Below, piece after piece: positions 1,764 through 28,018 of a DNA stretch of 32,000 nt (position 1 is its first letter; each line of letters starts with the position of its first letter). Position numbers and translations under genes: made by a program. This stretch comes from Candidatus Electrothrix sp. GW3-4 (GTDB taxonomy: Bacteria > Desulfobacterota > Desulfobulbia > Desulfobulbales > Desulfobulbaceae). The stretch lies in NCBI RefSeq assembly GCF_037902255.1, contig NZ_CP147990.1:840001-872000 (forward strand), read 5' to 3'. Under the pieces are notes generated by a model. It saw only the letters and a program-made list of their open reading frames with translations. It had not been told where the DNA came from and searched no databases.

Positions 1764-2051
1764 ATGAACGATCTTGAGAAATTACGCGTAATGTTACCGC
1801 ACTGGATTGGTCATAACCAGGGGCATGGTGGAGAATTCGCGCAATGGGCGGAAAAAATAACAAGTGACTCTCCAGAGGTGGCCCAGCTGCTTCGTGATGC
1901 TGTCCAGTCTCTGCAAGAGGCCCAAAGCAGCCTTGAAGAGGCCCTGGAAAAGGCAGGCGGCCCTCTTGAGGAACCGGGTGGTCCGAGCGGTCACGGCACA
2001 CAGGGGCATGATCACAGTCATGAACACGGACATCATCACCAGCATTCATAG
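1764..2051 (+). CDS. Small helical protein with histidine-rich C-terminal tail (putative metal-binding)
   Basis: 95-aa ORF with GGAGG twice within 20 nt upstream of the ATG. The C-terminal tail GHGTQGHDHSHEHGHHHQHS has 9 His in its last 20 residues. It lies directly downstream of the CooT-like gene. Confidence 0.6.
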   Translation: MNDLEKLRVMLPHWIGHNQGHGGEFAQWAEKITSDSPEVAQLLRDAVQSLQEAQSSLEEALEKAGGPLEEPGGPSGHGTQGHDHSHEHGHHHQHS

Positions 2052-4451: not shown

Positions 4452-5006
4452 ATGTCCAAAGGAATGTGAAGTTGGGGTCGGGGTTATTACATACGAAACA
4501 GTATACGTCAGGTCTTGCCGGTGCAACGAACGGTGTGGTTTCTTCGTTATGCGGTACGAGAGACCCTGACTGTCCTGAGACCGGCAAAAGGTACAACCTT
4601 TTCTTGCAGAATGCGTACCAACTATTTTTTTGCAGAGTAATGCAAAAAGATATAAAAAATTATACGGTATTTTTTAGGTTCAAACAAGATCAATTCTTCT
4701 CCTTAATTATAAAAGGGTATTTGGTCATGCCGGGCAGGCTTTGTTGACCTGGAATCAGGCAGAGGTGCCGGAAACTTGTCATAAAACCTGACATGCGGCT
4801 GGTGAGTGAGTTGGGCAAAAGAGGGCACTGAATGTCGTAAAACGTCAGGAGGAGGGGGGAAAAGATGAAAGCAGAGCAACATTCTTGTCTGATAGCATGT
4901 TTCCGTGTACAATCTCTCTCTTTTTGTGGAACAGGAGATGACGCTGGTTGTTGGATGACAGTGAAGAACGCAAGACTACTTTATTCGGTGGAGTTTCTGA
5001 AAGAAC

Positions 5007-9441: not shown

Positions 9442-9503
9442 TAATTTTTTTGACAACGCCCCCTTTTTTCAACCTGTAATTCTTTTCTTTGAGAACCTGC
9501 TTG

Positions 9504-11855
9504 ATGAACCCTCTTGATCTTATCGGTAATACTCCTCTTGTCTCGTTGCAGAGAATGTGTCCTGCAGGCGCTGGAGAAATCTATGCGAAGCTGGAATGCA
9601 TGAATCCTGGTGGTTCGGTCAAAGACCGGCCAGCCTTGAACATGATTGAGGTGGGTGAGGAGAGTGGAGAACTGACACCAGATAAGATTATCCTGGAGGC
9701 CACCAGTGGCAATACCGGCATCGGCCTGGCTATGGTCTGTGCTGCCAAGGGATACCGTTGTCAGCTCATCATGCCGGAATCTGCCAGTATCGAACGACGA
9801 CAGATCATGCGGGCCTATGGGGCAGAGATTATCCTTACCCCGGCTGCCCGTTCCACAGACGGTGCTATTGAAAAGGCCTATGCCCTGGCCCGTGAATATC
9901 CTGACCGTTATTTTCTCACGGATCAATTTAATAATCCAGCCAACTGGCAGGCCCATTATCAGAGCACGGGCCCGGAGATCTGGGAGCAGACAGAGGGGAA
10001 AGTTACCGATATTATCACGACCTTGGGGACCTCAGGCACGGCTATGGGGCTCTCTCTCTGGTTTCGGGAACATCATCCCTCGGTGCGGGTCATAGCGGTG
10101 GAGCCCTACTTTGGTCATAAGATTCAGGGCTTGAAGAATATGAAAGAGTCCTATAAACCCGAGATTTTTGATAAGTATCTCCCCCATGAAGTTGTCAATG
10201 TCCAGGATGAGGACGCCTTTCGTACTGCCCGTTTGCTGGCTCGGCAAGAGGGGGTTTTTGTGGGGATGAGTTCCGGTGCTGCCATGTTTGCCGCGATGGA
10301 ACAGGCCGTGAAGGAGAAGGAGAGCTATGTGGTGGCTATCTTTCCAGACGGGGGGGAACGGTACCTGAGTACCCCGCTCTTTATTCGCAAGGAGAAACAG
10401 GAAGGCAAGGAGCGGCAACTCTGTCTGTACAATACCATCACTCGCAAGAAAGAAGCCTTTAAGCCGCTGCATGAGGGCAAGGTCACCTTTTATGCCTGCG
10501 GGCCTACCGCCTTTGAGGCACCTAACCTCTCTCATTGTCGCCGCTTGGTAGTTGCTGATCTGATGATCCGCTACCTTCAGTTCAAGGGCTTTGAGGTAGA
10601 ATCTATTATGAATTTTACCGACCTTGACGATAACACCATTGTCGGGGCAGAAAAGGCCGGTGAACCGCTGGCTGAATTTACGGATAAACATATCTCCCAG
10701 TTCCGTGAGGCGATCAATTTTCTCGGCATCAACGATTTCTCCGGTTATCCCAGGGCCTCGGAGCATGTTGGCGACATGATTGAAATCGCCCATGAGCTGA
10801 TCCACAAGGGCTTTGCCTATGAAAAACACGGATCAATCTATTTTGATATTTCCAAGTTCGGTAAATACGGGCAGCTCTCCGGGGTTGATCTGGGCAAGAT
10901 CCAGGTGGGACACACAGTGGACCTGGATGATTATGAAAAAGGGAATCCTCGAGATTTTACCTTACTGAAACGTTCTACTCTGGGTGAGTTGAAAAAAGGT
11001 GTTTTTTACGAGACAGACTGGGGTAATATCCGTCCGGGCTGGCATATTGAATGTACGGCCATGTCCACCCGGTATCTGGGCGAGACCATTGATATCCATA
11101 CCGGCGGGCAGGAACTGCTCTTTCCCCATCATGAAAATGAGAACGCTATTGCTGAGGCCCTGGCCGGAAAACCCCTGGCCAATTATTGGCTTCATTCAGG
11201 CTTGTTGCTCAAAGATGGCAAGAAAATGTCTGCGGAAGCAGGGAATGAGGTCACCCTCCAGGAGGCGATGGAGAAAGGGTATAGCGGGCGGGAAATCCGT
11301 TTTATGCTGCTTGGGGTCCATTACCGAAAATCCATGCATTTTACCTATAAAAAGCTCAATGCCATCCGCAAGGCCTTAAAGAGAATTGACGAGTTTACCC
11401 GAAAGCTGGGCTGCCTGCATCCAGGGCTCCCGCATCCGGTCATTGGCTCGTTGGTTGGGGAGCTGGAGAATCAAGTTACGAGTGCCTTAGATGATGACCT
11501 GAATATTTCCGGTGCAATTGGTGCGTTGTTTGATTTTATCAAAAAGGTCAATCCCATCCTCTACGCGGGCAGTCTGGATCTGGAGCAGAAAAATGAAATT
11601 TTTGCGCTCCTGCGAAAAATGAATCGGGTTTTCGGATTTCTCCGTTTAGAGCAATGTATCTTGGCCCCGGAAATCAACCGGCTGATTGAACAGCGGGAAG
11701 AGGCCCGTCGCCGTCGCGACTGGGCTGCTGCGGATATGGCCCGGACTGAGCTCCTGCAAAAGGGCATCATTGTCCATGATACGGCAAATGGGCCAGTTTG
11801 GGAGCAGGATGAGGCATGTAAGGTTTGTGAGAATGCCACTGGAAATGAACGTTGA
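9504..11855 (+). CDS. Fusion protein: PLP-dependent cysteine synthase (CysK/CysM-like, ~300 aa) + cysteinyl-tRNA synthetase-like domain (~480 aa)
   Basis: One uninterrupted frame. The track starts at TTG 9489; ATG 9504 is more likely. The N-terminal part has NPGGSVKDRPA (PLP lysine), TSGNTGIGLA and LGTSGTAMG. After the linker RKEKQEGKERQ the sequence is collinear with E. coli CysRS (LYNTITRKKEAFKP, ACGPT, GWHIECTAM, HTGGQELLFPHHENENA, RRRRDWAAADMAR..GIIVHDT). Confidence 0.85.
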   Translation: MNPLDLIGNTPLVSLQRMCPAGAGEIYAKLECMNPGGSVKDRPALNMIEVGEESGELTPDKIILEATSGNTGIGLAMVCAAKGYRCQLIMPESASIERRQIMRAYGAEIILTPAARSTDGAIEKAYALAREYPDRYFLTDQFNNPANWQAHYQSTGPEIWEQTEGKVTDIITTLGTSGTAMGLSLWFREHHPSVRVIAVEPYFGHKIQGLKNMKESYKPEIFDKYLPHEVVNVQDEDAFRTARLLARQEGVFVGMSSGAAMFAAMEQAVKEKESYVVAIFPDGGERYLSTPLFIRKEKQEGKERQLCLYNTITRKKEAFKPLHEGKVTFYACGPTAFEAPNLSHCRRLVVADLMIRYLQFKGFEVESIMNFTDLDDNTIVGAEKAGEPLAEFTDKHISQFREAINFLGINDFSGYPRASEHVGDMIEIAHELIHKGFAYEKHGSIYFDISKFGKYGQLSGVDLGKIQVGHTVDLDDYEKGNPRDFTLLKRSTLGELKKGVFYETDWGNIRPGWHIECTAMSTRYLGETIDIHTGGQELLFPHHENENAIAEALAGKPLANYWLHSGLLLKDGKKMSAEAGNEVTLQEAMEKGYSGREIRFMLLGVHYRKSMHFTYKKLNAIRKALKRIDEFTRKLGCLHPGLPHPVIGSLVGELENQVTSALDDDLNISGAIGALFDFIKKVNPILYAGSLDLEQKNEIFALLRKMNRVFGFLRLEQCILAPEINRLIEQREEARRRRDWAAADMARTELLQKGIIVHDTANGPVWEQDEACKVCENATGNER

Positions 11856-11918: not shown

Positions 11919-11995
11919 GCGCCAATAGCTCAGCTGGATAGAGCAACGGCCTTCTAAGCCGTAGGTCGCAGGTTCGAATCCTGCTTGGCGTACCA
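11919..11995 (+). tRNA. tRNA-Arg (anticodon UCU), encoded CCA
   Basis: Hand-folded cloverleaf. Acceptor GCGCCAA/TTGGCGT has a G1-U72 wobble. D arm GCTC-AGCTGGATA-GAGC; anticodon arm ACGGC-CTTCTAA-GCCGT with TCT at positions 34-36; T arm GCAGG-TTCGAAT-CCTGC. Discriminator is A, followed by CCA. Confidence 0.9.
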
Positions 11996-12262: not shown

Positions 12263-12766
12263 TCATTCTCCGTTCCGGGTTTCTTCCAGAACAAAGCGAA
12301 CGTCCAGGTTTTTCAGCATGGTGAAACAGTCGGTATAATCGACCTCAAATTCATGGCAGACATTGGGGATGAGGATTTTTCTCTTTGCCTGCGGGTTGTA
12401 TGCCTCATGGGTTACAACAATACATCCGTGGACTTTGGCAAAGGCTATCAGCCACGGGTCGGCCCCTGAAAGGAAATGTTCAGCTACGCGCTGACTGTGA
12501 TTCTCCACCGCATAGCTGGCAATTGATCTGAAGATTTCCTGAACAGTGGGTTCCGTCACCTCGGCAAAGAAATGAGAGCCTTTTATCTCTTCAGCCCAAT
12601 CTTTCAATTCATCGTTGCCGTTCTGAAGCTCTTCCAGAACAGGAGAAATAGAACCCACTGTCCCGACCCGAAAGACAAGCCAGTCCCAGAAACCGGGGCA
12701 GATAGAAAAATGGTAGTGAGCATTTTTGGCCTGAATAAATACGTTGCTGTCCAGACAGTAATCCAT
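12263..12766 (-). CDS. DUF4411-family (PIN-like) protein
   Basis: 167 aa, MDYCLDSNVFIQAKNAHY... The acidic-residue pattern and length are as I recall for DUF4411. The start lies 1 nt after the stop of the upstream ImmA/IrrE gene, which is the usual partner. Confidence 0.7.
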   Translation of the reverse strand: MDYCLDSNVFIQAKNAHYHFSICPGFWDWLVFRVGTVGSISPVLEELQNGNDELKDWAEEIKGSHFFAEVTEPTVQEIFRSIASYAVENHSQRVAEHFLSGADPWLIAFAKVHGCIVVTHEAYNPQAKRKILIPNVCHEFEVDYTDCFTMLKNLDVRFVLEETRNGE

Positions 12767-12767
12767 A

Positions 12768-13943
12768 TTATTTTCCTGTCAGAAAGTCCGCATATTGTTT
12801 CAGGCCAGCCGGTTTGACCCCCAGCAGAGAACCGGCATCCCGCAACAGCAGTCTTCCTTCAAGGGCCGCAGCCGCCACAGCTTGGGAAAACAGGTTGCCG
12901 TTTCTGAACTTGCGCATGGTGTCGGACTTGGGGCCGCCTGCACTTTCAGCTAATTTATTTTTCTTCTTTTGGTCATAGTGGACAGCCTGCCAATAAAAAT
13001 CCTGCAACGTATCATAGGGCAACACGTCCAGATCGTATCCACGCCGGGCAATAACCAACTGACTGACCCGGTACTGTTGAGCAAGCAGGGCAATATTGTC
13101 CTGTGCCGGAATCTCGCTGTTCCAATCAGTCAGAAATTGCGCTTCAGGAACCAGCACCTCCGCAGCCGTCCTGTTGCAGAAGGTTTCCACCTTCTTTCCA
13201 CGTTTGCCTTTTTTCTCTTTATTCAGCTGAGGGTTGGAAACTCCGCTCTGTCCGATCCAGAGATGAACCAGCTCATGGGCAAGGGTGAAGATTTGCGCGG
13301 ATTTGGCATCACGGGAATTGATAAAGATGAGCGGTGCCACCGGGTCGCTGAGGGCAAAGCCCCGGAACTCATCAACGGACAGCGGGCGGTGGGTGTTGTT
13401 GCCGACAATGGAATTGCGCATGACAAGGATACCGGCATCCTCGGCCTGTTCAATCAGGCAGGTGATGAACTGTTCCCAATTTCGGGCGGAACTGCGGACC
13501 TCATCCACAGACAGCACCTGCCGTATATCCGCTGCTACCACCCGGTAATCATCTGTTACGGAGTAGTTGCCGATAAAGGGCAGCGGCTGTACTCCCTCCT
13601 GCATACGGTATTCCCGGAACCAGTCCTGTTTCCGCAGAATATCGTTGTACAGATCAAGAAATTCAAGGCTGAAACCGGGCATGGTTCTGCTGCCAACAGT
13701 CCGCAGGTCGGGTATATCCGGTTCCTGTTTCGGCGGGGCAGGCAGAAAGAAGTACCCAAACGGCACATGGAATGCCTTGGCAAGGAGTTGCGCCTGTCGG
13801 AAGGTCGGTCTTTTTTGGCCTTCCTCCCAAGCAAGGAACTGCTCTGGACGCACCTTTACCTTATGCGCAGCAGCATCCGTGCTGAACTGCGCCCGTTTTC
13901 TTGCCCAACTGAGCACATGCGGGGTAATAAAGGCTTCAGGCAT
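12768..13943 (-). CDS. XRE-HTH + ImmA/IrrE-family zinc metallopeptidase
   Basis: 391 aa. It has an N-terminal HTH (RPTFRQAQLLAKAFHVPFGYFFL) and a central HEXXH motif (LAHELVHLWIG) in an ImmA/IrrE-like context. Confidence 0.8.
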   Translation of the reverse strand: MPEAFITPHVLSWARKRAQFSTDAAAHKVKVRPEQFLAWEEGQKRPTFRQAQLLAKAFHVPFGYFFLPAPPKQEPDIPDLRTVGSRTMPGFSLEFLDLYNDILRKQDWFREYRMQEGVQPLPFIGNYSVTDDYRVVAADIRQVLSVDEVRSSARNWEQFITCLIEQAEDAGILVMRNSIVGNNTHRPLSVDEFRGFALSDPVAPLIFINSRDAKSAQIFTLAHELVHLWIGQSGVSNPQLNKEKKGKRGKKVETFCNRTAAEVLVPEAQFLTDWNSEIPAQDNIALLAQQYRVSQLVIARRGYDLDVLPYDTLQDFYWQAVHYDQKKKNKLAESAGGPKSDTMRKFRNGNLFSQAVAAAALEGRLLLRDAGSLLGVKPAGLKQYADFLTGK

Positions 13944-14090: not shown

Positions 14091-14258
14091 CTGAAGAAAC
14101 GCTTCAGCTCCACCTGTGCCTGTCCTCATGTATACAAAAAGCTGTTTTCCTATACACGGCAACCTGTTCATGTATAGAAAAACGCATTTTCTTTACATGT
14201 ACCGCATCCGAGCGGAACTGCCCAAGCTGTACAGTCAGGATTTATTGAACAATCTCTT
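14091..14258 (+). repeat. Copy of non-coding junction + start of Fic C-terminal fragment (partner 27667-27834)
   Basis: 168 nt align colinearly with 27667-27834 at roughly 85-90% identity by eye, including ...catgtatac..cctatacac..catgtatag.. and ..gcggaactgcccaagctgtacagtcaggattta.tgaacaa. Confidence 0.8.
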
Positions 14259-14279
14259 GCCCGAAGTATACTCCACACC

Positions 14280-14720
14280 GGGGCCAAGGCTGACCGCCCC
14301 GGCCTGACTGATGCCTTAAAATACGTCCGTGAAGGGGATTGCCTCGTTGTCTGGCGGCTGGATCGTTTGGGCCGCAGCCTGAAGCATCTGATTGAAGTTG
14401 TGGAAGGCTTAGAAGAGCAGGGAACAGGCTTTATCAGCCTTCAGGAAGGATTCGACACCACCACCAGCGGCGGCAGGCTGGTCTTTCAGATCTTCGGGGC
14501 CTTGGCTGAATTTGAAAGAAACCTGATCCGGGAAAGGACAAAAGCCGGGCTGGATGCGGCCAGGGCCAGAGGGAGGAAGGGCGGCAGAAAGGTGAAGCTG
14601 AAGCCTCAGCAGATTGCCGCCCTGAAAACTATGTATGAGAGTAAGGCGCATACTGTTGATGAGGTATGCGCTGTGTTTGGGATTAGTAAGCCGACTTTGT
14701 ATCGGTATTTGGAGATGTAG
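14280..14720 (+). pseudogene. Serine recombinase (Hin/resolvase family) remnant R1, lacking N-terminal catalytic-Ser region
   Basis: The in-frame translation GAKADRPGLTDALKYVREGDCLVVWRLDRLGRS...FGALAEFERNLIRERTKAGL...HTVDEVCAVFGISKPTLYRYLEM* matches residues ~60 to the end of small serine recombinases. The sequence upstream is the Fic fragment, so there is no N-terminus. Confidence 0.8.
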
Positions 14721-14723
14721 GGT

Positions 14724-15002
14724 TCACGCAACAGCCAGCCGGCACCCCAACGCCTTGACCACTTTGCTGACCGTAGAGAATCTCGGGTTACCTTCCCCGG
14801 CAAGGGCTTTATACAGGCTTTCACGGTTCAGCCCGGCCTTTTTGGCTACCTCGGTCATACCCTGTTTTTTGGCCAGATACCCCAAGGCGACAAGAAAAAC
14901 CTTGGGATCATCATCCATATAGGCGTTGTTCAGGTACTCGTTGACCTCTTCTCTTGTTTCCAGATAGTCGAACGGGTTGTAGGGTTTTGTTGTAAGTTTC
15001 AT
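14724..15002 (-). CDS. HigA-family antitoxin (addiction module antidote protein)
   Basis: 92 aa. FDYLETREEVNEYLNNAY.., GMTEVAKKAGLNRESLYKALAGEGNPRFSTV..KALG is the typical family pattern. It overlaps the upstream toxin gene by 4 nt. Confidence 0.8.
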   Translation of the reverse strand: MKLTTKPYNPFDYLETREEVNEYLNNAYMDDDPKVFLVALGYLAKKQGMTEVAKKAGLNRESLYKALAGEGNPRFSTVSKVVKALGCRLAVA

Positions 15003-15307
15003 GACTCTTCTTCCCCCAGTTGTTTGACCATGTTTTTTGCCTTTTTTATGTCCCTTTCCTGGGTCGATTTATTACCGCCGCAGAGCAGGAGGATAATCCG
15101 ACCGTCCTGGATCACGTAATACAGGCGATAACCCGGCCCGACAAAGATACGCATCTCGCTGATTTCGCCGCCGACCGACTTAACATCGCCGAAGTTGCCC
15201 AGCTTTGCCCGGTCGAGACGAGCGGCCACGGCGAGTACCGCTTTGCGGTCACGCAGTTTCTTCAGCCACTTGTCGAAAGCGGGCGTGGTTTCTATTTCGT
15301 AGATCAG
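14999..15307 (-). CDS. HigB/RelE-like addiction module killer protein (start codon uncertain or lost)
   Basis: Family homology extends upstream of the track's GTG (15229): ..LIYEIETTPAFDKWLKKLRDRKAVLAVAARLDRAKLGNFGDVKSVGGEISEMRI.VGPGYRLYY. Only CTG (15307) or ATC (15304) sit where the ATG is expected, and an in-frame stop lies at 15338-15340. Confidence 0.6.
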   Translation of the reverse strand: MIYEIETTPAFDKWLKKLRDRKAVLAVAARLDRAKLGNFGDVKSVGGEISEMRIFVGPGYRLYYVIQDGRIILLLCGGNKSTQERDIKKAKNMVKQLGEEES

Positions 15308-15383
15308 GGGTATTTGTAGCCTGTGAGCTACGGTTTGTCAAGGGGAAGGGAATGTTTGTTGATTGATCGGAGTGGGGCGGGTT

Positions 15384-15627
15384 GATCTTCGGGGCATTGG
15401 CTGAGTTTGAACGGAATCTGATCCGGGAGCGGACAAAGGCCGGGCTGGAAGCAGCCAGGGCCAGAGGGAGGAAAGGCGGCAGAAAGGTGAAACTGAAGCC
15501 TCAGCAAATCGCCGCCCTAAAAACTATGTATGAGAGTAAGGCGCACACTGTTGAGGAGGTATGCGCTGTGTTCGGGGTTAGTAAGCCGACATTATATAGC
15601 TATTTAAAAACTCAGAAAATTGAGTAA
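15384..15627 (+). pseudogene. Serine recombinase remnant R2 (C-terminal about 80 aa incl. HTH)
   Basis: IFGALAEFERNLIRERTKAGLEAARARGRKGGRKVKLKPQQIAALKTMYESKAHTVEEVCAVFGVSKPTLYSYLKTQKIE*. It aligns with R1 from 14497 on, at about one nt difference in ten. Confidence 0.8.
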
Positions 15628-15652
15628 AACTATACAAAATATAAGGCTTCTT

Positions 15653-16243
15653 TTATTCATTAGGACATTCATCCGAAGCCGCACTACATAACCCTGTTGT
15701 GCGGCTACAGAATTTATCATCCCAATTATAGCAAGCATCACTTCCATTTGGGCCAGCATCTTTCTTACAACATCTTCCATTAGAAAATTTAATACCATGT
15801 TCCTTTAGTATTAATTTCGCTGCTGCTATATCTTTCATCGTTATAACTTTTTCTTTTTTATCTTTTGTTGAAATTTTTATTTTTTCAGACGAATTAGATG
15901 GTTTCGGGATCTTCATTGCTATAGATAAAAGTTCCAGTGAATCTTTCAATTCACTATTACCTACAATCTTCTCGTCTTCATACCACCTACAATGTAGATG
16001 CCCTTCACATACTGTTTGATTCTTAATATCACTACATTTATTTGCCGTTCCATAACATCCATCAACTACACCGCTACTAGATGAAACATAGGTGCATCCA
16101 CTTTGTTTTATACATTGATCATAATTAGAAATATCTCTGCAAGACAAATTCCACCCCGCACATTCACCCGCAAAAACAAAAGATGGGGTTACAAAAAAAT
16201 AACACAGTATCATTCCAACTAAATATGTTTTTTTCATTTTCAT
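15653..16243 (-). CDS. Secreted cysteine-rich protein A (unknown function)
   Basis: 196-aa ORF in an AT-rich segment. AGGAG lies just upstream, and spacing favours ATG 16237. Signal peptide (MK)MKKTYLVGMILCYFFVTPSFVFA. The mature part has 14 Cys in two clusters separated by a K/S-rich linker. Confidence 0.65.
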   Translation of the reverse strand: MKMKKTYLVGMILCYFFVTPSFVFAGECAGWNLSCRDISNYDQCIKQSGCTYVSSSSGVVDGCYGTANKCSDIKNQTVCEGHLHCRWYEDEKIVGNSELKDSLELLSIAMKIPKPSNSSEKIKISTKDKKEKVITMKDIAAAKLILKEHGIKFSNGRCCKKDAGPNGSDACYNWDDKFCSRTTGLCSAASDECPNE

Positions 16244-16336
16244 CTCCTATTATTAATATAAAATTAATTACCGTTTGTCCTATACACAGATTACCCTTAT
16301 GGGGTAACAATAATGCAATGGTATTCGAAGCACATC

Positions 16337-16696
16337 CTATAAAGTTTTTCGGACGATTAATGGATAATCACTCGAAAAATCAGATATACCTCCGCATGAT
16401 GCACTTGGGGATGAATCGCAAGTAAAATTACAAGCTTCCCCTGTTAAAGAACAACATGCTGAAGCAGCCTCCCCAGTCTCATTATTTCTAATAATACAAA
16501 GTCTGTCTCCAGAACAGGATGGGTCTCCACTTGCACTAACATATGTGGTACATTTATCAATAAATGATGACTTAAAAGATACTGTTTTTTCTACCTTATC
16601 CGATTGTTTTTCTTTGTTTTGTGCCGCTGCTAAATGATTTGAAAGGAAAAAAGCAAAAACAAAACAAACCATTACTCTTGTAACATTTTTTTTCAT
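16337..16696 (-). CDS. Secreted cysteine-rich protein B (unknown function, paralogous motif to protein A)
   Basis: The start at 16696 is preceded by GGGAGGGG. Signal peptide MKKNVTRVMVCFVFAFFLSNHLAAA. The mature part has 8 Cys. It shares C-T-(T)-Y-V-S-[SA]-S-G and a CC doublet with protein A. Confidence 0.65.
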   Translation of the reverse strand: MKKNVTRVMVCFVFAFFLSNHLAAAQNKEKQSDKVEKTVSFKSSFIDKCTTYVSASGDPSCSGDRLCIIRNNETGEAASACCSLTGEACNFTCDSSPSASCGGISDFSSDYPLIVRKTL

Positions 16697-16854
16697 ATCC
16701 CCTCCCTTGTTTATTTTTTTACAATTCATTTTCTACACTAGGTCATAAGTATATCAGTAATTTTTTTTTGTCAACGTATTATAACTATTGATAATAATTA
16801 ACACTCCCATTTTAAAAGAAATAACGAAAAACAGAAATCGTTATTTCGTTCCCC

Positions 16855-16996
16855 CCTGATCCGGGAACGGACAAAGGCCGGGCTGGAAGCGGCCAGGGCC
16901 AGAGGGAGGAAGGGCGGCAGAAAGCTGAAGCTGAAACCTCAGCAAATTGCCGCCCTGAAAACCATGTACGAGAGCAAGGCGCATACTGTTGAGGAG
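16855..16996 (+). pseudogene. Serine recombinase remnant R3 (internal fragment)
   Basis: LIRERTKAGLEAARARGRKGGRKLKLKPQQIAALKTMYESKAHTVEE. It is truncated at both ends and finishes 6 nt before the hsdR stop codon. Confidence 0.8.
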
Positions 16997-17002
16997 TTCA
17001 GC

Positions 17003-20000
17003 TCACCCCGCAGCAGTCAACTCATCAGCGATTTTTTCCGCCTGTTGCAGCACGGTTTCCGTGGCCAGTTTCTGCATATCAGGCGGGTAGCCGTATTTTC
17101 GCAAGGTGCGCTTGACCAGTACCTTGAGCTTTGCCCGCACATCCTCTTTGATGGTCCAGTCAATAGAGGCATTAGCCCGGACCTTCTCGGTCAGCACCAC
17201 GGCCAGTTCCCGCAGTGTGTCTTTCTTCATCAGCTCAACCGCGCTTTCATTATTTGCCACTGCGGTATAGAAGGCATATTCAAAGTCGGTCAGGCCCATG
17301 TTCTCGGCTTCCTGATCCTTTGCTTTCATATCTCTGCCAATGTTTATCAGCTCTTCAATCACTTCAGCAGCAGTAATGATTTTATTATGATAGCGTTTAA
17401 TGGAGTCTTCAAGCATCTCCATCAGGCTGTTGCTCTGGACCAGGTTTTTTTTGGCCCGGGCCCGGATTTCATCGTTGAGCAGCTTTTTCAGGACTTCCAG
17501 GGCAATATTTTTATGTTCCATCTCCCGGATTTCCAGCAGGAATTCTTCGGAAAGAATGGAAATATCCGGTTTCTTTATTCCGGCTGCATCAAAAATATCT
17601 ATCATCTGATGGGAAACAAGGGCCTGGTCAATGACCTGCCGGATCACCGCTTCCCGTTCCTCATCGGTCCGGCCTTGGTCTGTAGCGGAAAACTTGGCCA
17701 GCCGGGCCTTGATGGCCTGGAAAAAGGCCACCTCATCCTTGCAATCCAGGGCCTGTTCATGGGGAACAGCAAGGGCAAAGGCCTTGGACAGGGCCGCGAC
17801 TTCATCCATGAATCGTTTTTTGCCGTTTTCCAGGTGCAGGATAAAATCTTCCGCTGCCAGGATCAGGGAAAGCTTTTGTGAGGTGTCAGCGGCAAAGTAT
17901 TCCTCATAGGCAAAGCCGTGCAGCATCTGGGAGACGATTTCCAGTTTCTCCAGGAGCAGAGCAACGGCCTGTTCCTGCTCAACTGCCGGATCCCCCTTGC
18001 CGCCGCTGTCCGCATAAAAGGACAGGGCCTTTTTCAGATCCGAGGCAATGCCCAGGTAATCCACCACCAGGCCGCCCGGTTTATCCCCATAGACCCTGTT
18101 CACCCGTGCAATGGCCTGCATCAGGTTATGGCCCTTCATGGGCTTATCAATGTACAGGGTATGGAGGCAGGGCGCATCAAAGCCGGTCAGCCACATATCC
18201 CGGACAATAACCAGCTGTAAGGGATCATCAGGATTGCGCATCCGTTCTGCCAAGGCCCGCCGTTGTTGCTTGGTGGTGTGGTGCCTGGCTATCTCCTCCC
18301 CGTCTGAAGAGGCTGCGGTCATCACCACCTTGATGGTTCCCTTTTTCAGGTCGTCATGGTGCCAGTCCGGTTGCAGGGCGATGATTTCCCGGTACAGATC
18401 CGCAGCGATCCTGCGGGACATGGCTACAATCATACCCTTGCCCTGAAAGACCTCCTGCCGCTGCCCGAAATGGCGGACAAGATCCTGAGCAACATTTTTC
18501 ACCCGTTCCCGGCTGCCGATCAGGGCTTCAAGCTGGGTCCATTTGGCCTTGGCTTTCTGGGTTTCAGAAAGGTCTTCCCGGTCCAGTTCATCATCCAGTT
18601 CCTGAACAAGCTCCCGGCCTTCTTCGCTCAGGGTGATCCTGGCCAGCCTGCTTTCATAGAGGATCGGGACCGTGCTGCCGTCCTCAATGGCCTGGGCAAT
18701 ATCATAGATGTCCACATACTCCCCGAAAACAGCCGGGGTGTTCACGTCGCTGCTTTCAATGGGGGTACCGGTAAAGCCCAGATAGGTGGCCTTGGGCAGG
18801 GCGTCCCGCATGTACTTGGCAAAGCCGTACACCGTCTTTTTGCCGATGATTTGCCCCTGTTCGTCCTTGTCATCAATGGTCTTGGCCTGAAAGCCGTATT
18901 GGGTCCGGTGAGCCTCATCAGCAATGACCACAATGTTTTCCCGGTCAGAAAGCTGCTCATAGACATTGCCCTGTTCCGGCTGAAACTTCTGGATCGTGGT
19001 AAAGACCACCCCGCCGGAGGCCACCTGCAACAGGGCTTTCAGGTGCTGCCGGTCTTTGGCCTGGACAGGTTCCTGGCGGATCAGCTGTTTTGCAGCGGCA
19101 AAGGTATCAAAGAGCTGGTCGTCTAGGTCGTTTCTGTCCGTGATAACCACCACCGTGGGATTGTGCAGGGCAAGGACAAGTTTTCCCGTGTAAAAGACCA
19201 TGCTCAACGATTTACCGCTGCCCTGGGTATGCCAGACCACCCCGCCCTTTCTGCTGCCGTTGCTTGCACTGGCTTTAATCGTACTTTCAACCGCTTTATT
19301 GACCGCATAATACTGATGATAAGCAGCCAGCTTTTTCACCGTTTGGATACTGGTTAACCCGGTTTTGGGGTCTTCACTCTTGGACTGCTCAAAGACGATG
19401 AAATGGCGGATCAAATCCAGCAGAGTTTTCCGGTTCAGCATGCCGGTAATCAGGGTTTCCAGCTGGCTGATTAAGGGAGAGGCCTCGGTTTTGCCGTCTG
19501 CGCTCTTCCAGGTCATAAAACGGCTCAAGCCTGCGGACAGGGAACCGGCCCGTGCTTCCAGGCCGTCAGAGATGATCAGGATTGCGTTATAGGTGAACAG
19601 GGAAGGGAGCGTTTTTTTATAGGTGCCGAGCTGACGAAAGGCAGATTCAATGGTGGCCTGTTCATCAGTGGGATTCTTCAATTCAACGACCACCAAGGGC
19701 AGACCGTTGACAAAAAGGACAAGATCCGGGCGTTTTTCTTTGTTCTTTTCTGTGGCTGTGAACTGGTTGACCACGAAAAATTCGTTATTTTCCGGCTTGT
19801 CAAAATCAACCAGCCAGATGATTTCGCCCCGGTCAATGCCCTCCTTGCGCACGGTCACCTTGACCCCTTCAGTCAGCAGGCTGTGAAATTCTTTGTTGTT
19901 GCTGATCAGGTCCGGGGAATGGATGCGCTCAACCTGGTTGAATGCGTCTTCTTGGGCGTTGTGGGGGATGTCCGGGTTCAGGCGGCTGATTGCTGAACGA

Positions 20001-20143
20001 AGGGTTGCCGCCAGCAGGTATTCATCAAAGCTGTTGCGGAGGGGAGTTTTACCGTTCGGGGCAATGTTCGGGCCGTAGAAGTATTGATAGCCCAGGGGCT
20101 GAAAGCGTTCTATGGCGAGCTGTTCTATTTCTTCTTCAGTCAT
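17003..20143 (-). CDS. hsdR: Type I restriction enzyme, R subunit
   Basis: 1046 aa with Walker A HTQGSGKS, DEAH box VIADEAHRTQ, helicase C motifs (FTGTP, QAIARVNR) and a typical HsdR N-terminal nuclease region. It overlaps hsdS by 8 nt. Confidence 0.95.
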   Translation of the reverse strand: MTEEEIEQLAIERFQPLGYQYFYGPNIAPNGKTPLRNSFDEYLLAATLRSAISRLNPDIPHNAQEDAFNQVERIHSPDLISNNKEFHSLLTEGVKVTVRKEGIDRGEIIWLVDFDKPENNEFFVVNQFTATEKNKEKRPDLVLFVNGLPLVVVELKNPTDEQATIESAFRQLGTYKKTLPSLFTYNAILIISDGLEARAGSLSAGLSRFMTWKSADGKTEASPLISQLETLITGMLNRKTLLDLIRHFIVFEQSKSEDPKTGLTSIQTVKKLAAYHQYYAVNKAVESTIKASASNGSRKGGVVWHTQGSGKSLSMVFYTGKLVLALHNPTVVVITDRNDLDDQLFDTFAAAKQLIRQEPVQAKDRQHLKALLQVASGGVVFTTIQKFQPEQGNVYEQLSDRENIVVIADEAHRTQYGFQAKTIDDKDEQGQIIGKKTVYGFAKYMRDALPKATYLGFTGTPIESSDVNTPAVFGEYVDIYDIAQAIEDGSTVPILYESRLARITLSEEGRELVQELDDELDREDLSETQKAKAKWTQLEALIGSRERVKNVAQDLVRHFGQRQEVFQGKGMIVAMSRRIAADLYREIIALQPDWHHDDLKKGTIKVVMTAASSDGEEIARHHTTKQQRRALAERMRNPDDPLQLVIVRDMWLTGFDAPCLHTLYIDKPMKGHNLMQAIARVNRVYGDKPGGLVVDYLGIASDLKKALSFYADSGGKGDPAVEQEQAVALLLEKLEIVSQMLHGFAYEEYFAADTSQKLSLILAAEDFILHLENGKKRFMDEVAALSKAFALAVPHEQALDCKDEVAFFQAIKARLAKFSATDQGRTDEEREAVIRQVIDQALVSHQMIDIFDAAGIKKPDISILSEEFLLEIREMEHKNIALEVLKKLLNDEIRARAKKNLVQSNSLMEMLEDSIKRYHNKIITAAEVIEELINIGRDMKAKDQEAENMGLTDFEYAFYTAVANNESAVELMKKDTLRELAVVLTEKVRANASIDWTIKEDVRAKLKVLVKRTLRKYGYPPDMQKLATETVLQQAEKIADELTAAG

Positions 20144-21242
20144 AGCGTACTCTTACCTCTCCGCTCATGAGTTTGGGAAGTAGGGTATTGCGGAGGTTTT
20201 CGAGGGTGCGGATTTGTGCGGCATTATTTAGAATCTTGAAAAAAATTGGAGAAATTTCTTTCTCAAAATTTATAATCTCTTTTTCTAACGGGACAGTTAC
20301 AGAGTGTTCTTTGAATGTTTTGGTCGTGATAGTGTCAAAAACACTGCCATATGCCGCGCTGATGAGTTGGTCCACAACATTTGCCACAAGCAGGTATGTA
20401 AAAAAATAACAGTCCTGATACTCGGGAATGATTCCGTAATTTGATTGGCTGAAAGCCATATTCTCCGCCAAAATAGCATATTTTCCAACAGTGCCTCTTG
20501 CGGAAATGATCGTGCTGAATTGAGGCAAAATTTTTGTTGAGCTGTTGTTTAACCCTTCAGTTGTTATTGTTTTTTCTGTCGATAAAACAATACTTTTGTG
20601 ATTAGGCGTTATATCTTTTGCTGAAAGCCAGCCTATATCACCATTCCAGTATTCATCAATAGACGTTTTCGGAGTCCCGCCGCCTATCAGCTTGATGCAG
20701 TCGTATAAGGATTTTTCCTCCCAATCATCCTCCGCCTCTTCAATAAACCACTGCCTGAACAGCGTTTCCGCCATTGCCTCAAGGGTTTTATTCTGGCGGT
20801 GGAGCAGGTCTATTTTGTCATCAAGACAGGATAGAGTCGAAGCTATGGCTTTTTGTTCGGGGAGCGAAGGAAGTAAAACATTTTCTTCATGAACATCATT
20901 TCGATTTATACCTGGAACCGCGCTTTTATCATTAAATTTTTCCCAATTTATCCCCTGAAGAAAATAATAAACAAAGAACTCGTTGTTATTTTTAAAATTT
21001 TCAACATACAATGTCGTATTAAGCGGCCAGTAGGCTTGCTGGGCTAAAAAAACTTTTCCTATTGTTCCATAGCGACCGGTTATAACACCAACACCTTCTA
21101 CTTTTGACTTATTGTGGAATCCTGAAATTCCCGATGATGAAAAAATTGGAATATCTCCATTCTTTCTTAGTCGTTTTGGTAAATCGTAACCACGTTTTAA
21201 GTTTAACACTTCCCCGAGCTTACATTCCTTCCACTCACCCAT
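20136..21242 (-). CDS. hsdS: Type I restriction enzyme, S (specificity) subunit
   Basis: Two target-recognition domains are separated by the conserved spacer [15 protein letters not shown], with a C-terminal [17 protein letters not shown]. The start [12 protein letters not shown] at 21242 overlaps the hsdM stop. Confidence 0.9.
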
Positions 21243-22779
21243 CAACAACCACCTTTGCCAACTTTTCAGCAATCACCCCATTCAACCGCTCTTCCTCCTG
21301 CAACTGCTCTGCAAACTCCGCCTGCAAGGCCGTAAAACGCTCCTTAAAATCAAAATCATCCTCTTCCGCAGCCAAACCTACGTATCGGCCCGGTGTGAGC
21401 ACATAGCCCAGTTCTGCCACCTCCTCGACCGCAGCGGATTTACAAAACCCTTTCACATCCTCATACCCGCCGTCCGTATTACGCCATCCATGATAGGTTT
21501 CCGTAATCATGCTTATATCCTCATCGGAAAACTCCTTGGTGCGCCGGTTGATCAGGTGGCCCATGTTGCGGGCATCAATGAACAGGATTTCATCCAGCCG
21601 GTTTCTGAATTTGCCGTTGGCCCTGTTTCGGCTGAGAAACCATAACGAGGCCGGGATCTGGGTATTGAGAAAGAGCTTAGGCGGAAGATTGACAATGCAG
21701 TCAACCAACCGGGCTTCCACCAGGGCCTTGCGTATCTCCCCTTCACCGGAGGTATTGGAGGTCAGTGCCCCCTTTGCCAGTACAAAACCGGCCTGTCCTG
21801 TGGGGTTGAGGTGATAGAGGAAGTGTTGAATCCAGGCATAGTTGGCATTGCCGCTGGGCGGTGTCCCGTACTTCCACCGTCCATCTTTGCGCAGCTGGTC
21901 CCCGCTCCAGTCGCTGTCATTAAAGGGCGGATTGGCGATCACATAATCAGCCTTCAGATCCTTATGGCCATCATTGAGAAACGAGCCCTCGTTGTTCCAC
22001 TGTACCTGAGAGCTTTCTATATGCCGGATAGCAAGGTTCATCTTGGCCAGCCGCCAGGTTGTCCGGTTGCTTTCCTGGCCGTAGATGGAAATATCATTGA
22101 TCCGGCCCTGATGCTCCACCACAAACTTTTCTGATTGGACAAACATGCCCCCGGATCCGCAACAGGGATCAAGCACCCGGCCCTTGTAGGGCTCCAGCAT
22201 TGCAACCAGCAGCTGCACCACCGAGCGGGGCGTATAGAACTGGCCCCCTTTTTTGCCTTCAGCAAGGGCGAATTCACCAAGAAAATATTCAAACACATGG
22301 CCCAGCACATCAGCGCTGCGGGCCTTGGCATCCCCTAAGGCAATATTGCCGATCAGATCAATCAGACCGCCCAGGGAGGCCGGGTCGAGCTGCTGCCGGG
22401 CATAGACCTTGGGCAGCACCCCCTTGAGGGAGGGATTTTCTTTTTCAATGGCATCCATTGCCGTGTCCACGTCCTTGCCGATCTCGGGCAGCTTGGCCCG
22501 CGAAAGGAGATGAGACCAGCGGGCCGTTTGCGGGACAAAGAAGACGTTTTCTGCTGCGTATTCATCCTTGTCTTCCGGGTCTGCTCCTTCATATTCCCCT
22601 TTCCCGGCAACAAGCTTGCTGTGCAGGTTTTCAAAGGAATCAGAAATATATTTCAAGAAGATCAGCCCTAACACAACGTGCTTATACTCTGCTGCATCAA
22701 TATTTTTGCGAAGCTTATCTGCGGCCTTAAAGAGCTGTTTTTCTATGGGTTCATCAGTCTTTTTTTTCTTTTTTGCCAT
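21235..22779 (-). CDS. hsdM: Type I restriction enzyme, M subunit (N6-adenine DNA methyltransferase)
   Basis: 514 aa with the HsdM N-terminal domain ([11 protein letters not shown]), an AdoMet motif ([11 protein letters not shown]) and the catalytic NPPF ([12 protein letters not shown]). Confidence 0.95.
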
Positions 22780-26165: not shown

Positions 26166-27311
26166 TCACCCGACCGCCTCTTTCGGCTCCTCACCCTGCA
26201 TCGAAAGCGCATCCTCAAGAATCCCGCTGACCTCATTCGAGGCCCGTTGCATGGCCTCATCCCGGTGATGGGCGTACCGCTGTGTCATCTGCGGGCTTTT
26301 ATGGGTCATGAGCTTTTGCAGCGTGAACATATCCACCTTGCCGCTGTTGGCAAGCATGGTGGCGTACACATGCCGCAGCCCGTGCAATGGCCTGAAGTCG
26401 GCAGGGAGGCCAGCAGCTTCTTTAATGGCTCTCACGTCCTTGGAAATATCCTTACGCGGCCCGCCCCCTCTGGCCGGAAAAATATATTCGCTCTCCTGCT
26501 TAGGTACGGAGTGCAGCAACACCCTTGCGCTGTTGTTTAACGGTATTTTCTGACTCTTGCCGCCCTTGGGTTCCCGGATATGAATAAAGCCCCGCTCAAA
26601 GTCTATATCATCCCATTGCAGCTTGAACATTTCCCCCCGCCGCAGCCCGGTAAAAAGAACCAGCTTCATCATATTGGCGGCTGTGGTGCGGTGGGTGGTT
26701 TCGAGAACATCAAAGAGGCTCTGCAACTGCTCCGGGGTCAGGTCTTCAGTCTTGATGTTGTCAACGCGGGGAATGGTGATCTTGAAGGCAAGGGGAGCAA
26801 TCCAGCCCTGCCCGTATCCGAAATTGATTATCCGCTTGAGCAGTACCAGCACATGCTTGACGGTCTGCGGTGAATGCGTCTTTAAAAGGTTGATCCGTAC
26901 CCGGTCGGTATCCAGCTTGACAATCTCTTTCGGTTCCTTGTTGCCAAATGGCTTTTTTAAATGCGCTTCATATCTGCCGGAATCGGTACGGGTGGCTCTG
27001 TTCTTTGGTAACTGCGCCCGGTATGCTTCCCATAGTCTGTCGGTTGTCCAGCGGTGTTTAACGGCCTCTGCCGCTTTGCGTTCGTCCCGGTTGCTCTTAT
27101 GCTTTCCTTCGATCCGCTCCGCACGGATACCGGCAGCTCTGGCGGGGGTCATATCATCCTGATATTGACGACCTGCTTTTTCCTCAACCTGCTTTCCGTT
27201 CTTCCGGTAGAAAATATAATAGATTCTTTCTTTGCCGGTGCGCCCGACCGCCTCACCTTGAATGTAATAAACTCCGGGATATTTTGTTTTCACCCGTTTC
27301 TGACGTGGCAT
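26166..27311 (-). CDS. int: Tyrosine-type site-specific integrase
   Basis: 381 aa. The C-terminal catalytic region has RRGE, HGLRHVYATMLANSG (H-x-x-R) and THKSPQMTQRYAH (Tyr). It is adjacent to attR. Confidence 0.92.
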   Translation of the reverse strand: MPRQKRVKTKYPGVYYIQGEAVGRTGKERIYYIFYRKNGKQVEEKAGRQYQDDMTPARAAGIRAERIEGKHKSNRDERKAAEAVKHRWTTDRLWEAYRAQLPKNRATRTDSGRYEAHLKKPFGNKEPKEIVKLDTDRVRINLLKTHSPQTVKHVLVLLKRIINFGYGQGWIAPLAFKITIPRVDNIKTEDLTPEQLQSLFDVLETTHRTTAANMMKLVLFTGLRRGEMFKLQWDDIDFERGFIHIREPKGGKSQKIPLNNSARVLLHSVPKQESEYIFPARGGGPRKDISKDVRAIKEAAGLPADFRPLHGLRHVYATMLANSGKVDMFTLQKLMTHKSPQMTQRYAHHRDEAMQRASNEVSGILEDALSMQGEEPKEAVG

Positions 27312-27469: not shown

Positions 27470-27539
27470 AACGGCCTTCTAAGCCGTAGGTCGCAGGTTC
27501 GAATCCTGCTTGGCGTACCATATATATATCAGGGGGTTA
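27470..27539 (+). repeat. attR: displaced tRNA-Arg 3' half (no 5' half) plus flank
   Basis: 27470-27520 is identical to 11945-11995. The preceding sequence (..ggagggaaagagggtga) has no acceptor or D arm. Confidence 0.85.
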
Positions 27540-27666: not shown

Positions 27667-28018
27667 CTGAAAAAACGCTTCCGGTATACCTGTGCCTCCC
27701 CTCATGTATACGAAAAGCTGTTTTCCTATACACGACAACCTGTTCATGTATAGAAAATGGCTTTTTCTATACAAGCACCGCATCCGGGCGGAACTGCCCA
27801 AGCTGTACAGTCAGGATTTACTGAACAACCTGTTCCGGCATCCGTACACCAAGATTGAATATCTTCAGAATGATTTGCGGGTTTCCCGGCTGACAGCAAG
27901 CAGGTATCTTGCTCAACTTACAGAGCGGGGTTTTCTGGAAAAGGCAAAGGTGGGGCGGTACAACTATTATATCAATCAGCCGTTGATGGATTTATTTGCA
28001 GATATACCGGAGTTGTGA
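27667..28018 (+). pseudogene. Fic-family protein remnant (C-terminal winged-helix part only) preceded by repeated junction sequence
   Basis: From about 27775 the translation reads RIRAELPKLYSQDLLNNLFRHPYTKIEYLQNDLRVSRLTASRYLAQLTERGFLEKAKVGRYNYYIN, as in the C-terminus of Fic/DOC proteins. No Fic core (HPFxxGNG) lies upstream. The first 168 nt repeat 14091-14258. Confidence 0.7.

Follow-up and report, generated by a model that had tools for sequence, protein, structure and literature searches.

An AT-rich two-gene segment for putatively exported cysteine-rich orphan proteins in a tRNA-Arg island of the cable bacterium Candidatus Electrothrix sp. GW3-4

Small secreted cysteine-rich proteins encoded on mobile DNA include the heat-stable enterotoxin pre-pro-peptides and the Sec-dependent class II bacteriocins. 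In the bacterial envelope, the chlamydial OmcA/OmcB-type cysteine-rich proteins are thought to be structural through disulfides. We analyzed a stretch of 32,000 nucleotides from Candidatus Electrothrix sp. GW3-4 (contig NZ_CP147990.1, positions 840,001 to 872,000; hereafter the window, to which all positions refer), which contains an AT-rich segment with two minus-strand genes, B and then A, encoding cysteine-rich proteins. Like the enterotoxins and Sec-dependent bacteriocins, these are AT-rich mobile genes, and both B and the C-terminal unit of A arrange a signal peptide, a charged spacer and a C-terminal cysteine cluster; however, they match no such family, their products are much larger (10 and 19 kDa), and immunity and export genes are absent. 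The locus resembles that of the chlamydial proteins in having neighbouring genes for exported cysteine-rich proteins in a Gram-negative host, but no homology to them was found, A and B lack a lipobox, and both are strain-specific rather than core. The closest likeness in genomic setting is the ORFan cargo of tRNA-integrated islands, with which the segment shares a foreign composition, the absence of a family and an integrase-bearing island with 58-bp tRNA-Arg repeats; it differs in that one orphan (A) splits into two recurrent, undescribed cysteine modules with few metagenomic relatives. The segment is ordinary horizontally acquired orphan cargo, whose analysis defined two undescribed cysteine-rich modules as a by-product. 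We hypothesize, with confidence evenly balanced, that it was acquired and is specific to this strain, and that its exported products are disulfide-stabilised proteins with a binding or structural rather than an enzymatic role.

The composition profile of the whole window drops to 0.32-0.34 G+C at ~15600 to 16800, compared with 0.50-0.55 in the flanks. Computed G+C was 0.330 for positions 15628-16854 and 0.329 for the sharper core (Table 1), compared with 0.501 in the part of the window to its left and 0.478 in the part to its right, which confirmed an earlier by-eye estimate of about one-third against about half. G+C at third codon positions (GC3) was 0.22 in gene A and 0.19 in gene B, versus 0.57-0.65 for hsdR, hsdM, the integrase, higA and an open reading frame (ORF) joining cysK and cysS. 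The AT-rich segment is compositionally foreign DNA. Proteins A and B match WGN25_03995 and WGN25_04000 at 100% identity; both are encoded on the 4.64-Mb contig of GW3-4, the closed genome of the marine cable bacterium Ca. Electrothrix antwerpensis, which was built from Nanopore data with Illumina polishing (PMC11247825). Because this assembly had polishing problems, independent short-read data were compared. The Logan short-read contigs from SRR28154589 and SRR28154590 matched positions 14562-16918 (contig L006, 100% over 2357 bp) and 15343-16918 (99.8%). Both edges are spanned by contigs of two independent short-read assemblies, and the segment is therefore real, as are both of its junctions; an assembly artefact is ruled out.

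The segment had been described in an earlier note, made from the sequence alone, as a discrete cassette. This holds for its composition, which has sharp edges, but not for its structure: terminal inverted repeats, terminal direct repeats, target duplications and an attC-like site are absent from its ends, the flanking resolvase fragments end at three points instead of consistent recombination points, and its sole notable inverted repeat lies upstream of B, whereas an attC site would be an imperfect inverted repeat at the 3' end of the ORF. It is thus neither an integron cassette nor a discrete mobile cassette in the usual sense. It holds no gene beyond A and B, and no immunity, ABC-transporter, processing or export gene lies within it.

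Table 1. Features of the AT-rich segment and its surroundings (positions in the window).
Feature	Position	Strand	Details
AT-rich foreign segment	15598..16861	.	1.26 kb, 33% G+C; sharp edges within resolvase fragments R2 and R3; from composition, edges from three-way resolvase fragment alignment
Gene A	15653..16237	-	194 aa; NCBI WGN25_03995, hypothetical protein; signal peptide, tandem 4-Cys modules, K/S-rich helical linker, 6-Cys unit
A, N-terminal 8-Cys domain	15974..16168	-	residues 26-90; two copies of C-x-G-x4-C-x8-C-x5-C-x-[WY]
A, C-terminal unit	15656..15931	-	residues 105-196; helical region and 6-Cys cluster CC-x11-C-x7-C-x6-C-x6-C
Shine-Dalgarno GGAGA of gene A	16243..16247	-	abuts first ATG (16243); 6 nt before second ATG (16237)
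Gene B	16337..16696	-	119 aa; NCBI WGN25_04000, hypothetical protein; signal peptide 1-25, K/E-rich stretch, 8-Cys region 49-101
Shine-Dalgarno GGGAGG of gene B	16701..16706	-	precedes ATG at 16696
Hairpin and U-run just past gene A stop	15592..15637	-	-10.7 kcal/mol, z -2.0
7-bp hairpin GUUACCC/GGGUAAU, B-A intergenic spacer	16290..16308	-	folding
Promoter-like hexamers upstream of B	16748..16783	-	TATAAT 16778-16783; TTGACA 16769-16774, 15-nt spacer, TATACT 16748-16753
Inverted repeat, 10 bp, 10-nt loop	16818..16847	-	GAAATAACGA at 16818-16827, TCGTTATTTC at 16838-16847
Resolvase fragment R1	14310-14720	+	starts at about codon 60-76
HigA/HigB-like pair	14724-15229		
Resolvase fragment R2, left flank	15384..15597 (ORF listed to 15627)	+	5'-truncated; starts at IFGALAEF
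Resolvase fragment R3, right flank	16862..16998	+	both ends truncated; covers only NLIRERTK...KAHTVEE; abuts hsdR stop (17003)
Type I hsdRSM operon	17003-22779		

Both reading frames exceed the length expected by chance, since in 1000 Markov-1 simulations of this AT-rich sequence the longest ATG-initiated ORF averaged 60 aa, while 196 aa was reached in 0/1000 and at least 119 aa in 11/1000. The two minus-strand ORFs and their Shine-Dalgarno (SD) sequences had been recognised before and were recovered here, the latter as GGGAGG for B and GGAGA for A. Protein A had been placed at 15653-16243; the ORF is intact, but its start was moved to the second ATG, as in the NCBI annotation. The upstream ATG would make a product of 196 aa, and the 194-aa product is the likelier one because the SD spacing fits the second ATG. 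By the rule for Sec signal peptides, which asks for positive charge in the n-region, a hydrophobic stretch of 10-18 residues (h-region) and small side chains at -3 and -1, both proteins show the type I layout that had been described as classic. In this rule-based reading, A has MKK, a 12-residue core LVGMILCYFFVT (mean Kyte-Doolittle hydropathy 2.34) and a junction at VFA/GE, and B has MKKNVTR, a 12-residue core VMVCFVFAFFLS (mean hydropathy 2.75) and a junction at AAA/QN. The lipoprotein lipobox [LVI][ASTVI][GAS]C is absent, as the signal-peptide cysteines lie in MILC/Y (A) and VMVC/F (B), with L or V at -1. Mature A comprises 171 aa (~18.8 kDa) and is net neutral (K+R 24, D+E 24); mature B comprises 94 aa (~10.3 kDa), with K+R 10 and D+E 12. 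The earlier counts of 14 cysteines in A, in two clusters joined by a K/S-rich linker, and 8 in B match ours. In A, with residues numbered on the 196-aa form throughout, 8 cysteines fall at residues 28-85 and 6 at 158-193, and the 72-residue linker between them contains 14 K and 8 S.

Protein A is a fusion of two units, each of which also exists on its own in other proteins. Its N-terminal 8-Cys domain arose by tandem duplication of a module of 30 residues, with the family pattern C-x-G-x4-C-x(7-10)-C-x5-C-x-[WY]; a profile built on first halves recovered 4/4 second halves at E 4e-6 to 6e-5, and the opposite comparison gave E 4e-8 to 2e-4. In a HMMER scan covering all 1.84 billion cluster representatives, six proteins scored at E <= 0.001, namely A itself, P0002, P0004, P0005, P0006 and P0007. 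The N-terminal domain was found elsewhere only in P0004 (199 aa), P0005 (118 aa) and P0006 (762 aa), at E 1.7e-5 to 4.3e-4, and in each of them it stands immediately after the signal peptide; the signal peptides of these three and of P0002 have the same layout as those of A and B. What follows the domain differs among its carriers: the C-terminal parts of P0004 and P0006 are mutually unrelated, P0006 being a repeat protein, and P0005 consists of the N-terminal domain alone. In the four-sequence alignment 8/8 cysteines and G5, G24, G40 and W62 are invariant at an overall identity of about 30-36%, and the similarity was robust to composition-preserving shuffles (z 11-14, 0/5000). A signal peptide followed by two module copies with 8 cysteines thus recurs in A, P0004, P0005 and P0006, and we define this tandem 4-Cys N-terminal domain as a new, uncurated family. 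AlphaFold2 modelled it in A as a strand-helix-strand unit occurring twice, at a predicted local distance difference test (pLDDT) of 60-80. The C-terminal unit has a single homologue, P0002, a stand-alone secreted protein of 132 aa (E 5.9e-18), which is 46% identical over the aligned unit and keeps 6/6 cysteines and AGPNG.DACYNWDDKFCS. P0007, a repeat protein matched at E 4.8e-4, was rejected as a homologue; it aligns only over 14-18 residues (TVCEG..WYE) and is discounted as a local coincidence on account of that short span. Protein B found no homologue among 5.8 billion clusters and is a true singleton orphan.

Curated families gave no placement for either protein. Neither A nor B reached a gathering cut-off in Pfam-A or NCBIfam, in line with the earlier statement that no family was recognisable. 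In Pfam there were zero matches at E up to 10, and the single NCBIfam match at that limit fell on the signal peptide of B with 13.6 bits against a 35-bit cut-off. The homologues of A likewise lack Pfam and NCBIfam assignments. Rfam returned sub-threshold noise only, and no relatives were found in E. coli genomes, JGI metagenome contigs or GTDB genome contigs. Sequence searches of the PDB gave nothing significant. Their best match outside noise was for the N-terminal domain profile, to the C-terminal domain of trypanosome VSG ILTat1.24 (2jwg), which aligned at AECNKITEEPKCSEEKICSWHKE with a non-significant E=0.38. PSI (plexin-semaphorin-integrin) modules and this VSG domain are small disulfide modules that have in common with the N-terminal module of A a short extracellular format and a C-x6-8-C-x5-C-x-W spacing; however, the Pfam PSI and VSG models were silent at E up to 10 and Foldseek found no PDB match, so the likeness is a motif-level lead only. 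Structure prediction, an earlier recommendation, produced weak models (mean pLDDT 57.5 for A and 51.7 for B, the latter unusable), for which Foldseek found no significant fold match in the PDB. A and B belong to no described family.

The two genes had previously been called paralogous, a claim that failed every statistical test. BLASTP between A and B was not significant (E=3.7), the observed Smith-Waterman score was reached in 941/3000 composition-preserving shuffles (31%), and on B the N-terminal domain family profile scored -1.4 bits and the 30-residue half-module profile 1.9 bits in a fragmentary alignment. The string CT(T)YVS[SA]SG, on which the claim had drawn, is present in both proteins, but it does not exceed chance and is written in differing codons in the two genes. 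We therefore rejected a paralogous pair on these scores; no relationship between A and B was detectable at the sequence level. The genes share a single exact DNA repeat, a 12-nt stretch (GCAAAAACAAAA on the plus strand, at 16170-16181 and 16653-16664), which encodes FVFA in both signal peptides and is probably a coincidence of T-rich hydrophobic codons.

We hypothesize that the two-gene unit (B then A, minus strand) was acquired horizontally and came to lie between pieces of a plasmid-type resolvase gene, within a tRNA-Arg island of 15.5 kb that is itself decaying. Its products would be exported by Sec, cut by signal peptidase I at VFA/GE and AAA/QN, and then folded in the periplasm by disulfides within each module, as suggested by the even cysteine count of every module (4+4, 6, 8). 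We propose, with moderate-to-low confidence, that A and B then serve in the envelope or outside the cell as small proteins with a binding or structural function and no enzymatic one. The N-terminal module of A could be a movable head for secreted proteins that otherwise have nothing in common, the 762-aa repeat protein among them; its placement after the signal peptide of unrelated proteins would fit ligand or surface binding better than a catalytic or toxic role. Several points weigh against this interpretation. The structure models are weak and without a significant fold match, the binding-module idea draws only on domain architecture in four proteins, and the formation of periplasmic disulfides in a sulfide-exposed member of the Desulfobulbaceae is an assumption. 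The surroundings, moreover, are a junkyard of gene fragments, and the unit could be silent cargo.

Signals for expression bear on this last point. A hairpin with a U-run just past the stop of gene A is likely its terminator, and its complement supplies the aberrant last codons of resolvase fragment R2 (KTQKIE and stop), from which it follows that foreign DNA replaced the 3' end of the resolvase. Upstream of B, a minus-strand TATAAT had been noted at about 16775-16780; it is present, but at the position in Table 1. Promoter-like sites of the segment were no commoner than in shuffles, so the hexamers upstream of B are consensus matches only. The inverted repeat at the B-proximal edge likewise exists, with 10 bp instead of the 9 reported earlier; on the minus strand it is followed by UUUUAAAA and is terminator-like, folding at -12 kcal/mol (z -2.0) on the minus and -9.7 kcal/mol (z -3.6) on the plus strand. 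It lies at chance level, as perfect inverted repeats of at least 9 bp occurred in 22% of simulated sequences. The repeat is located 155 nt downstream of the hsdR stop on the hsdR-transcribed strand, where it could plausibly stop hsdMSR transcription from running on into gene B. Between the genes, the whole B-A spacer, with its 7-bp hairpin, folds no better than shuffles (z -0.25). These promoter-like sites at chance level are what would be expected if A and B were hitch-hiking cargo, intact only through recent arrival, unexpressed or useless in this host and bound to decay. The same holds for a GC3 of about 0.2, far from host usage, for the setting amid gene remains (three resolvase fragments, C-terminal Fic fragments and a HigB-like ORF that lacks a canonical start), and for the absence of orthologues from all other cable-bacterium genomes. 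We consider such a fate unlikely but worth keeping in view, given that the ORFs, SD sites and signal peptides of both genes are all intact in stop-rich AT-rich DNA, that the terminator-like hairpin is kept, and that the cysteine pattern of A is fully intact compared with its family.

The distribution of the proteins speaks against a conserved cable-bacterial component. Among the 5.8 billion clusters and 1.84 billion representatives searched, the GW3-4 proteins were the only cable-bacterial sequences, no orthologue was found in other cable bacteria, and no paper in the literature searched connects cable bacteria with cysteine-rich proteins. A and B are strain-specific accessory cargo outside the cable-bacterial core machinery. 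The host is reported to build conductive periplasmic fibres with a sulfur-ligated nickel cofactor (PMC11247825; PMC8238962). In such a sulfidic anaerobe, the cysteines that make up 8-10% of the mature chains might stay reduced and act in the periplasm as ligands of Ni, Fe, Cu or Zn, or as electron carriers. We regard such thiolate metal or redox proteins as very unlikely: CxxC, CxxCH and His-rich metal motifs are absent, no metallochaperone or metallothionein family was matched, the cysteine spacings (x5-x13) and even counts per module suit disulfide scaffolds, and the genes are missing in all other cable bacteria. A conserved component of the nickel-sulfur fibre or envelope is rejected by this phyletic distribution: because no other cable-bacterium genome encodes A or B, they cannot be a conserved part of the fibre, and an over-reading of them as fibre candidates is removed.

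The contexts of the relatives of A were examined for the company these genes keep. The contig of P0004 comes from a cold seep, Site-F in the South China Sea (PMC9357000), and its upstream gene (L002 3-254 / L003 1-246) ends in an 83-residue C-terminal fragment with 9 cysteines. On the unrelated P0005 contig the next ORF (L004 739-951) encodes a 70-aa signal-peptide protein with 6 cysteines in its mature part and twin C-x3-C motifs. Genes for the N-terminal domain thus stand beside another small cysteine-rich ORF in 3/4 available contexts, a tiny sample in which the partners are not detectably homologous. Neither the L002 fragment nor the second ORF of L004 resembled B significantly (BLASTP E=0.11 and 7.6; shuffle p >=0.1), nor did they resemble the C-terminal unit of A or each other; homology of B to the cysteine-rich neighbours of the relatives of A was rejected accordingly.

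Multi-peptide bacteriocin loci likewise cluster small ORFs, and this recurrence, together with small, exported-looking, disulfide-rich products of foreign genes on a mobile island, would suit a secreted antagonistic pair, that is, a Sec-dependent bacteriocin-like toxin, or a toxin and its helper, directed at competitors or grazers. Class II or Sec-dependent bacteriocins are below 10 kDa and usually cationic, and their genes stand next to one for immunity and, in many cases, one for an ABC exporter; A and B depart from this in sizes and charges, and no further gene accompanies them. The segment lacks immunity, ABC-transporter and processing genes and a double-glycine leader is absent; no toxin or bacteriocin family was matched in Pfam or NCBIfam even with E relaxed to 10, mature A has a mass of 18.8 kDa and no net charge, and its N-terminal module also heads a 762-aa structural-looking protein. 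We consider an antagonistic pair improbable on this evidence. We would give slightly less credence still to a broader and speculative proposal, in which the tandem 4-Cys module, the helix and 6-Cys unit and B are parts of an undescribed, multi-component class of disulfide-rich extracellular proteins of marine-sediment microbes. These would be encoded in small clusters of unrelated cysteine-rich genes (the window, L002/L003 and L004), would have a specific extracellular activity, such as an interbacterial or anti-grazer effector set or surface recognition, and would have been captured by the cable bacterium via horizontal transfer.

A tRNA-Arg(TCT) gene occupies 11919-11995, a perfect direct repeat of its 3'-terminal 58 nt is found at 27470-27527, 15.5 kb away, and a tyrosine integrase gene (26166-27311, minus strand) adjoins this distal attachment (att) repeat; together they define a 15.5-kb integrative island that encloses the AT-rich segment. 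The island contains DUF4411 and IrrE-like genes, the HigA/HigB-like pair, the AT-rich segment, type I hsdRSM and a second Gp49-like gene, which bears out the earlier placement of the two genes among restriction-modification (R-M) and toxin-antitoxin (TA) modules in a mobile island. A and B lie between the HigBA-like pair and the type I R-M operon, and with the DUF4411 and IrrE-like genes nearby they might be periplasmic phage-exclusion or defence accessories travelling with the adjacent R-M and TA modules. This appears highly improbable, since PADLOC models gave zero matches for A and B at E up to 1, and PHROGs gave nothing meaningful (best for A E=0.03, to a family of unknown function; none for B). 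Moreover, no relative was found by tblastn in 50,697 phage genomes or in plasmids, nor in IMG/VR viral contigs, the contigs of the A homologues carry no defence genes, and proximity by itself says little where fragments are so mixed. The bacteriocin-like toxin, phage-exclusion factor and metal/redox protein that the earlier note had suggested all found no support, with no PADLOC or PHROGs match, no phage, plasmid or viral relative and no immunity or export gene.

As it stands, the locus matters little beyond documenting foreign cargo of a single strain, whose closed genome is one of few for cable bacteria. More generally, its analysis defines two cysteine-rich extracellular modules that are very rare and uncurated, of which the tandem 4-Cys repeat could be registered as a domain family; if a toxin, inhibitor or adhesin activity were shown, the recurring clustering with cysteine-rich ORFs would become interesting.

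The history of the island is recorded in its fragments. R1, R2 and R3 are direct fragments of one plasmid-type resolvase 3' region and separate the HigBA-like pair, the AT-rich segment and hsdRSM; the closest intact relative, a resolvase of 183 aa with 83% identity, is encoded on the Desulfocapsa sulfexigens plasmid NC_020305.1. Since the fragments end at three differing points and terminal repeats are absent, we read the region as pieces of plasmids or islands that accumulated through homologous or illegitimate recombination, and a site-specific cassette array using the resolvase 3' end was rejected on the differing ends and the lack of defined sites. Two copies of a Fic-family C-terminal gene fragment (SoFic-like_C), 89% identical in DNA, occur at 14116-14307 and 27692-28018 (plus strand), alongside repeat D2 (14091-14258 and 27667-27834). 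One copy lies in the island beside R1 and the other just outside attR, which suggests a tandem or nested island history.

Other genes of the window were recorded in passing. The HigB/Gp49-like ORF (14999-15229, minus strand) has an in-frame N-terminal extension to about 15340 (IPLIYEIETTPAFDKWLKKLRDRKA...) without an ATG, GTG or TTG start; the ORF may be a remnant that has lost its start, or translation may begin at a rare codon. At the attL end of the island, a DUF4411 (PIN-like) gene is followed by a gene with helix-turn-helix and IrrE/Peptidase_M78 domains (12263-13943, minus strand); DUF4411 and IrrE-type two-gene modules are often proposed to be toxin-antitoxin or abortive-infection systems. 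Just upstream of tRNA-Arg, a 788-aa ORF (9489-11855, plus strand) joins a PLP-dependent cysteine-synthase-like domain (PALP) to an entire cysteinyl-tRNA synthetase, including its catalytic, DALR and anticodon-binding domains, and is an apparent CysK-CysS fusion. Further upstream, an 826-aa protein (2046-4526, minus strand) contains a UQ_con (ubiquitin-conjugating-enzyme-like) domain, scored at 30.9 bits against a Pfam cut-off of 27.

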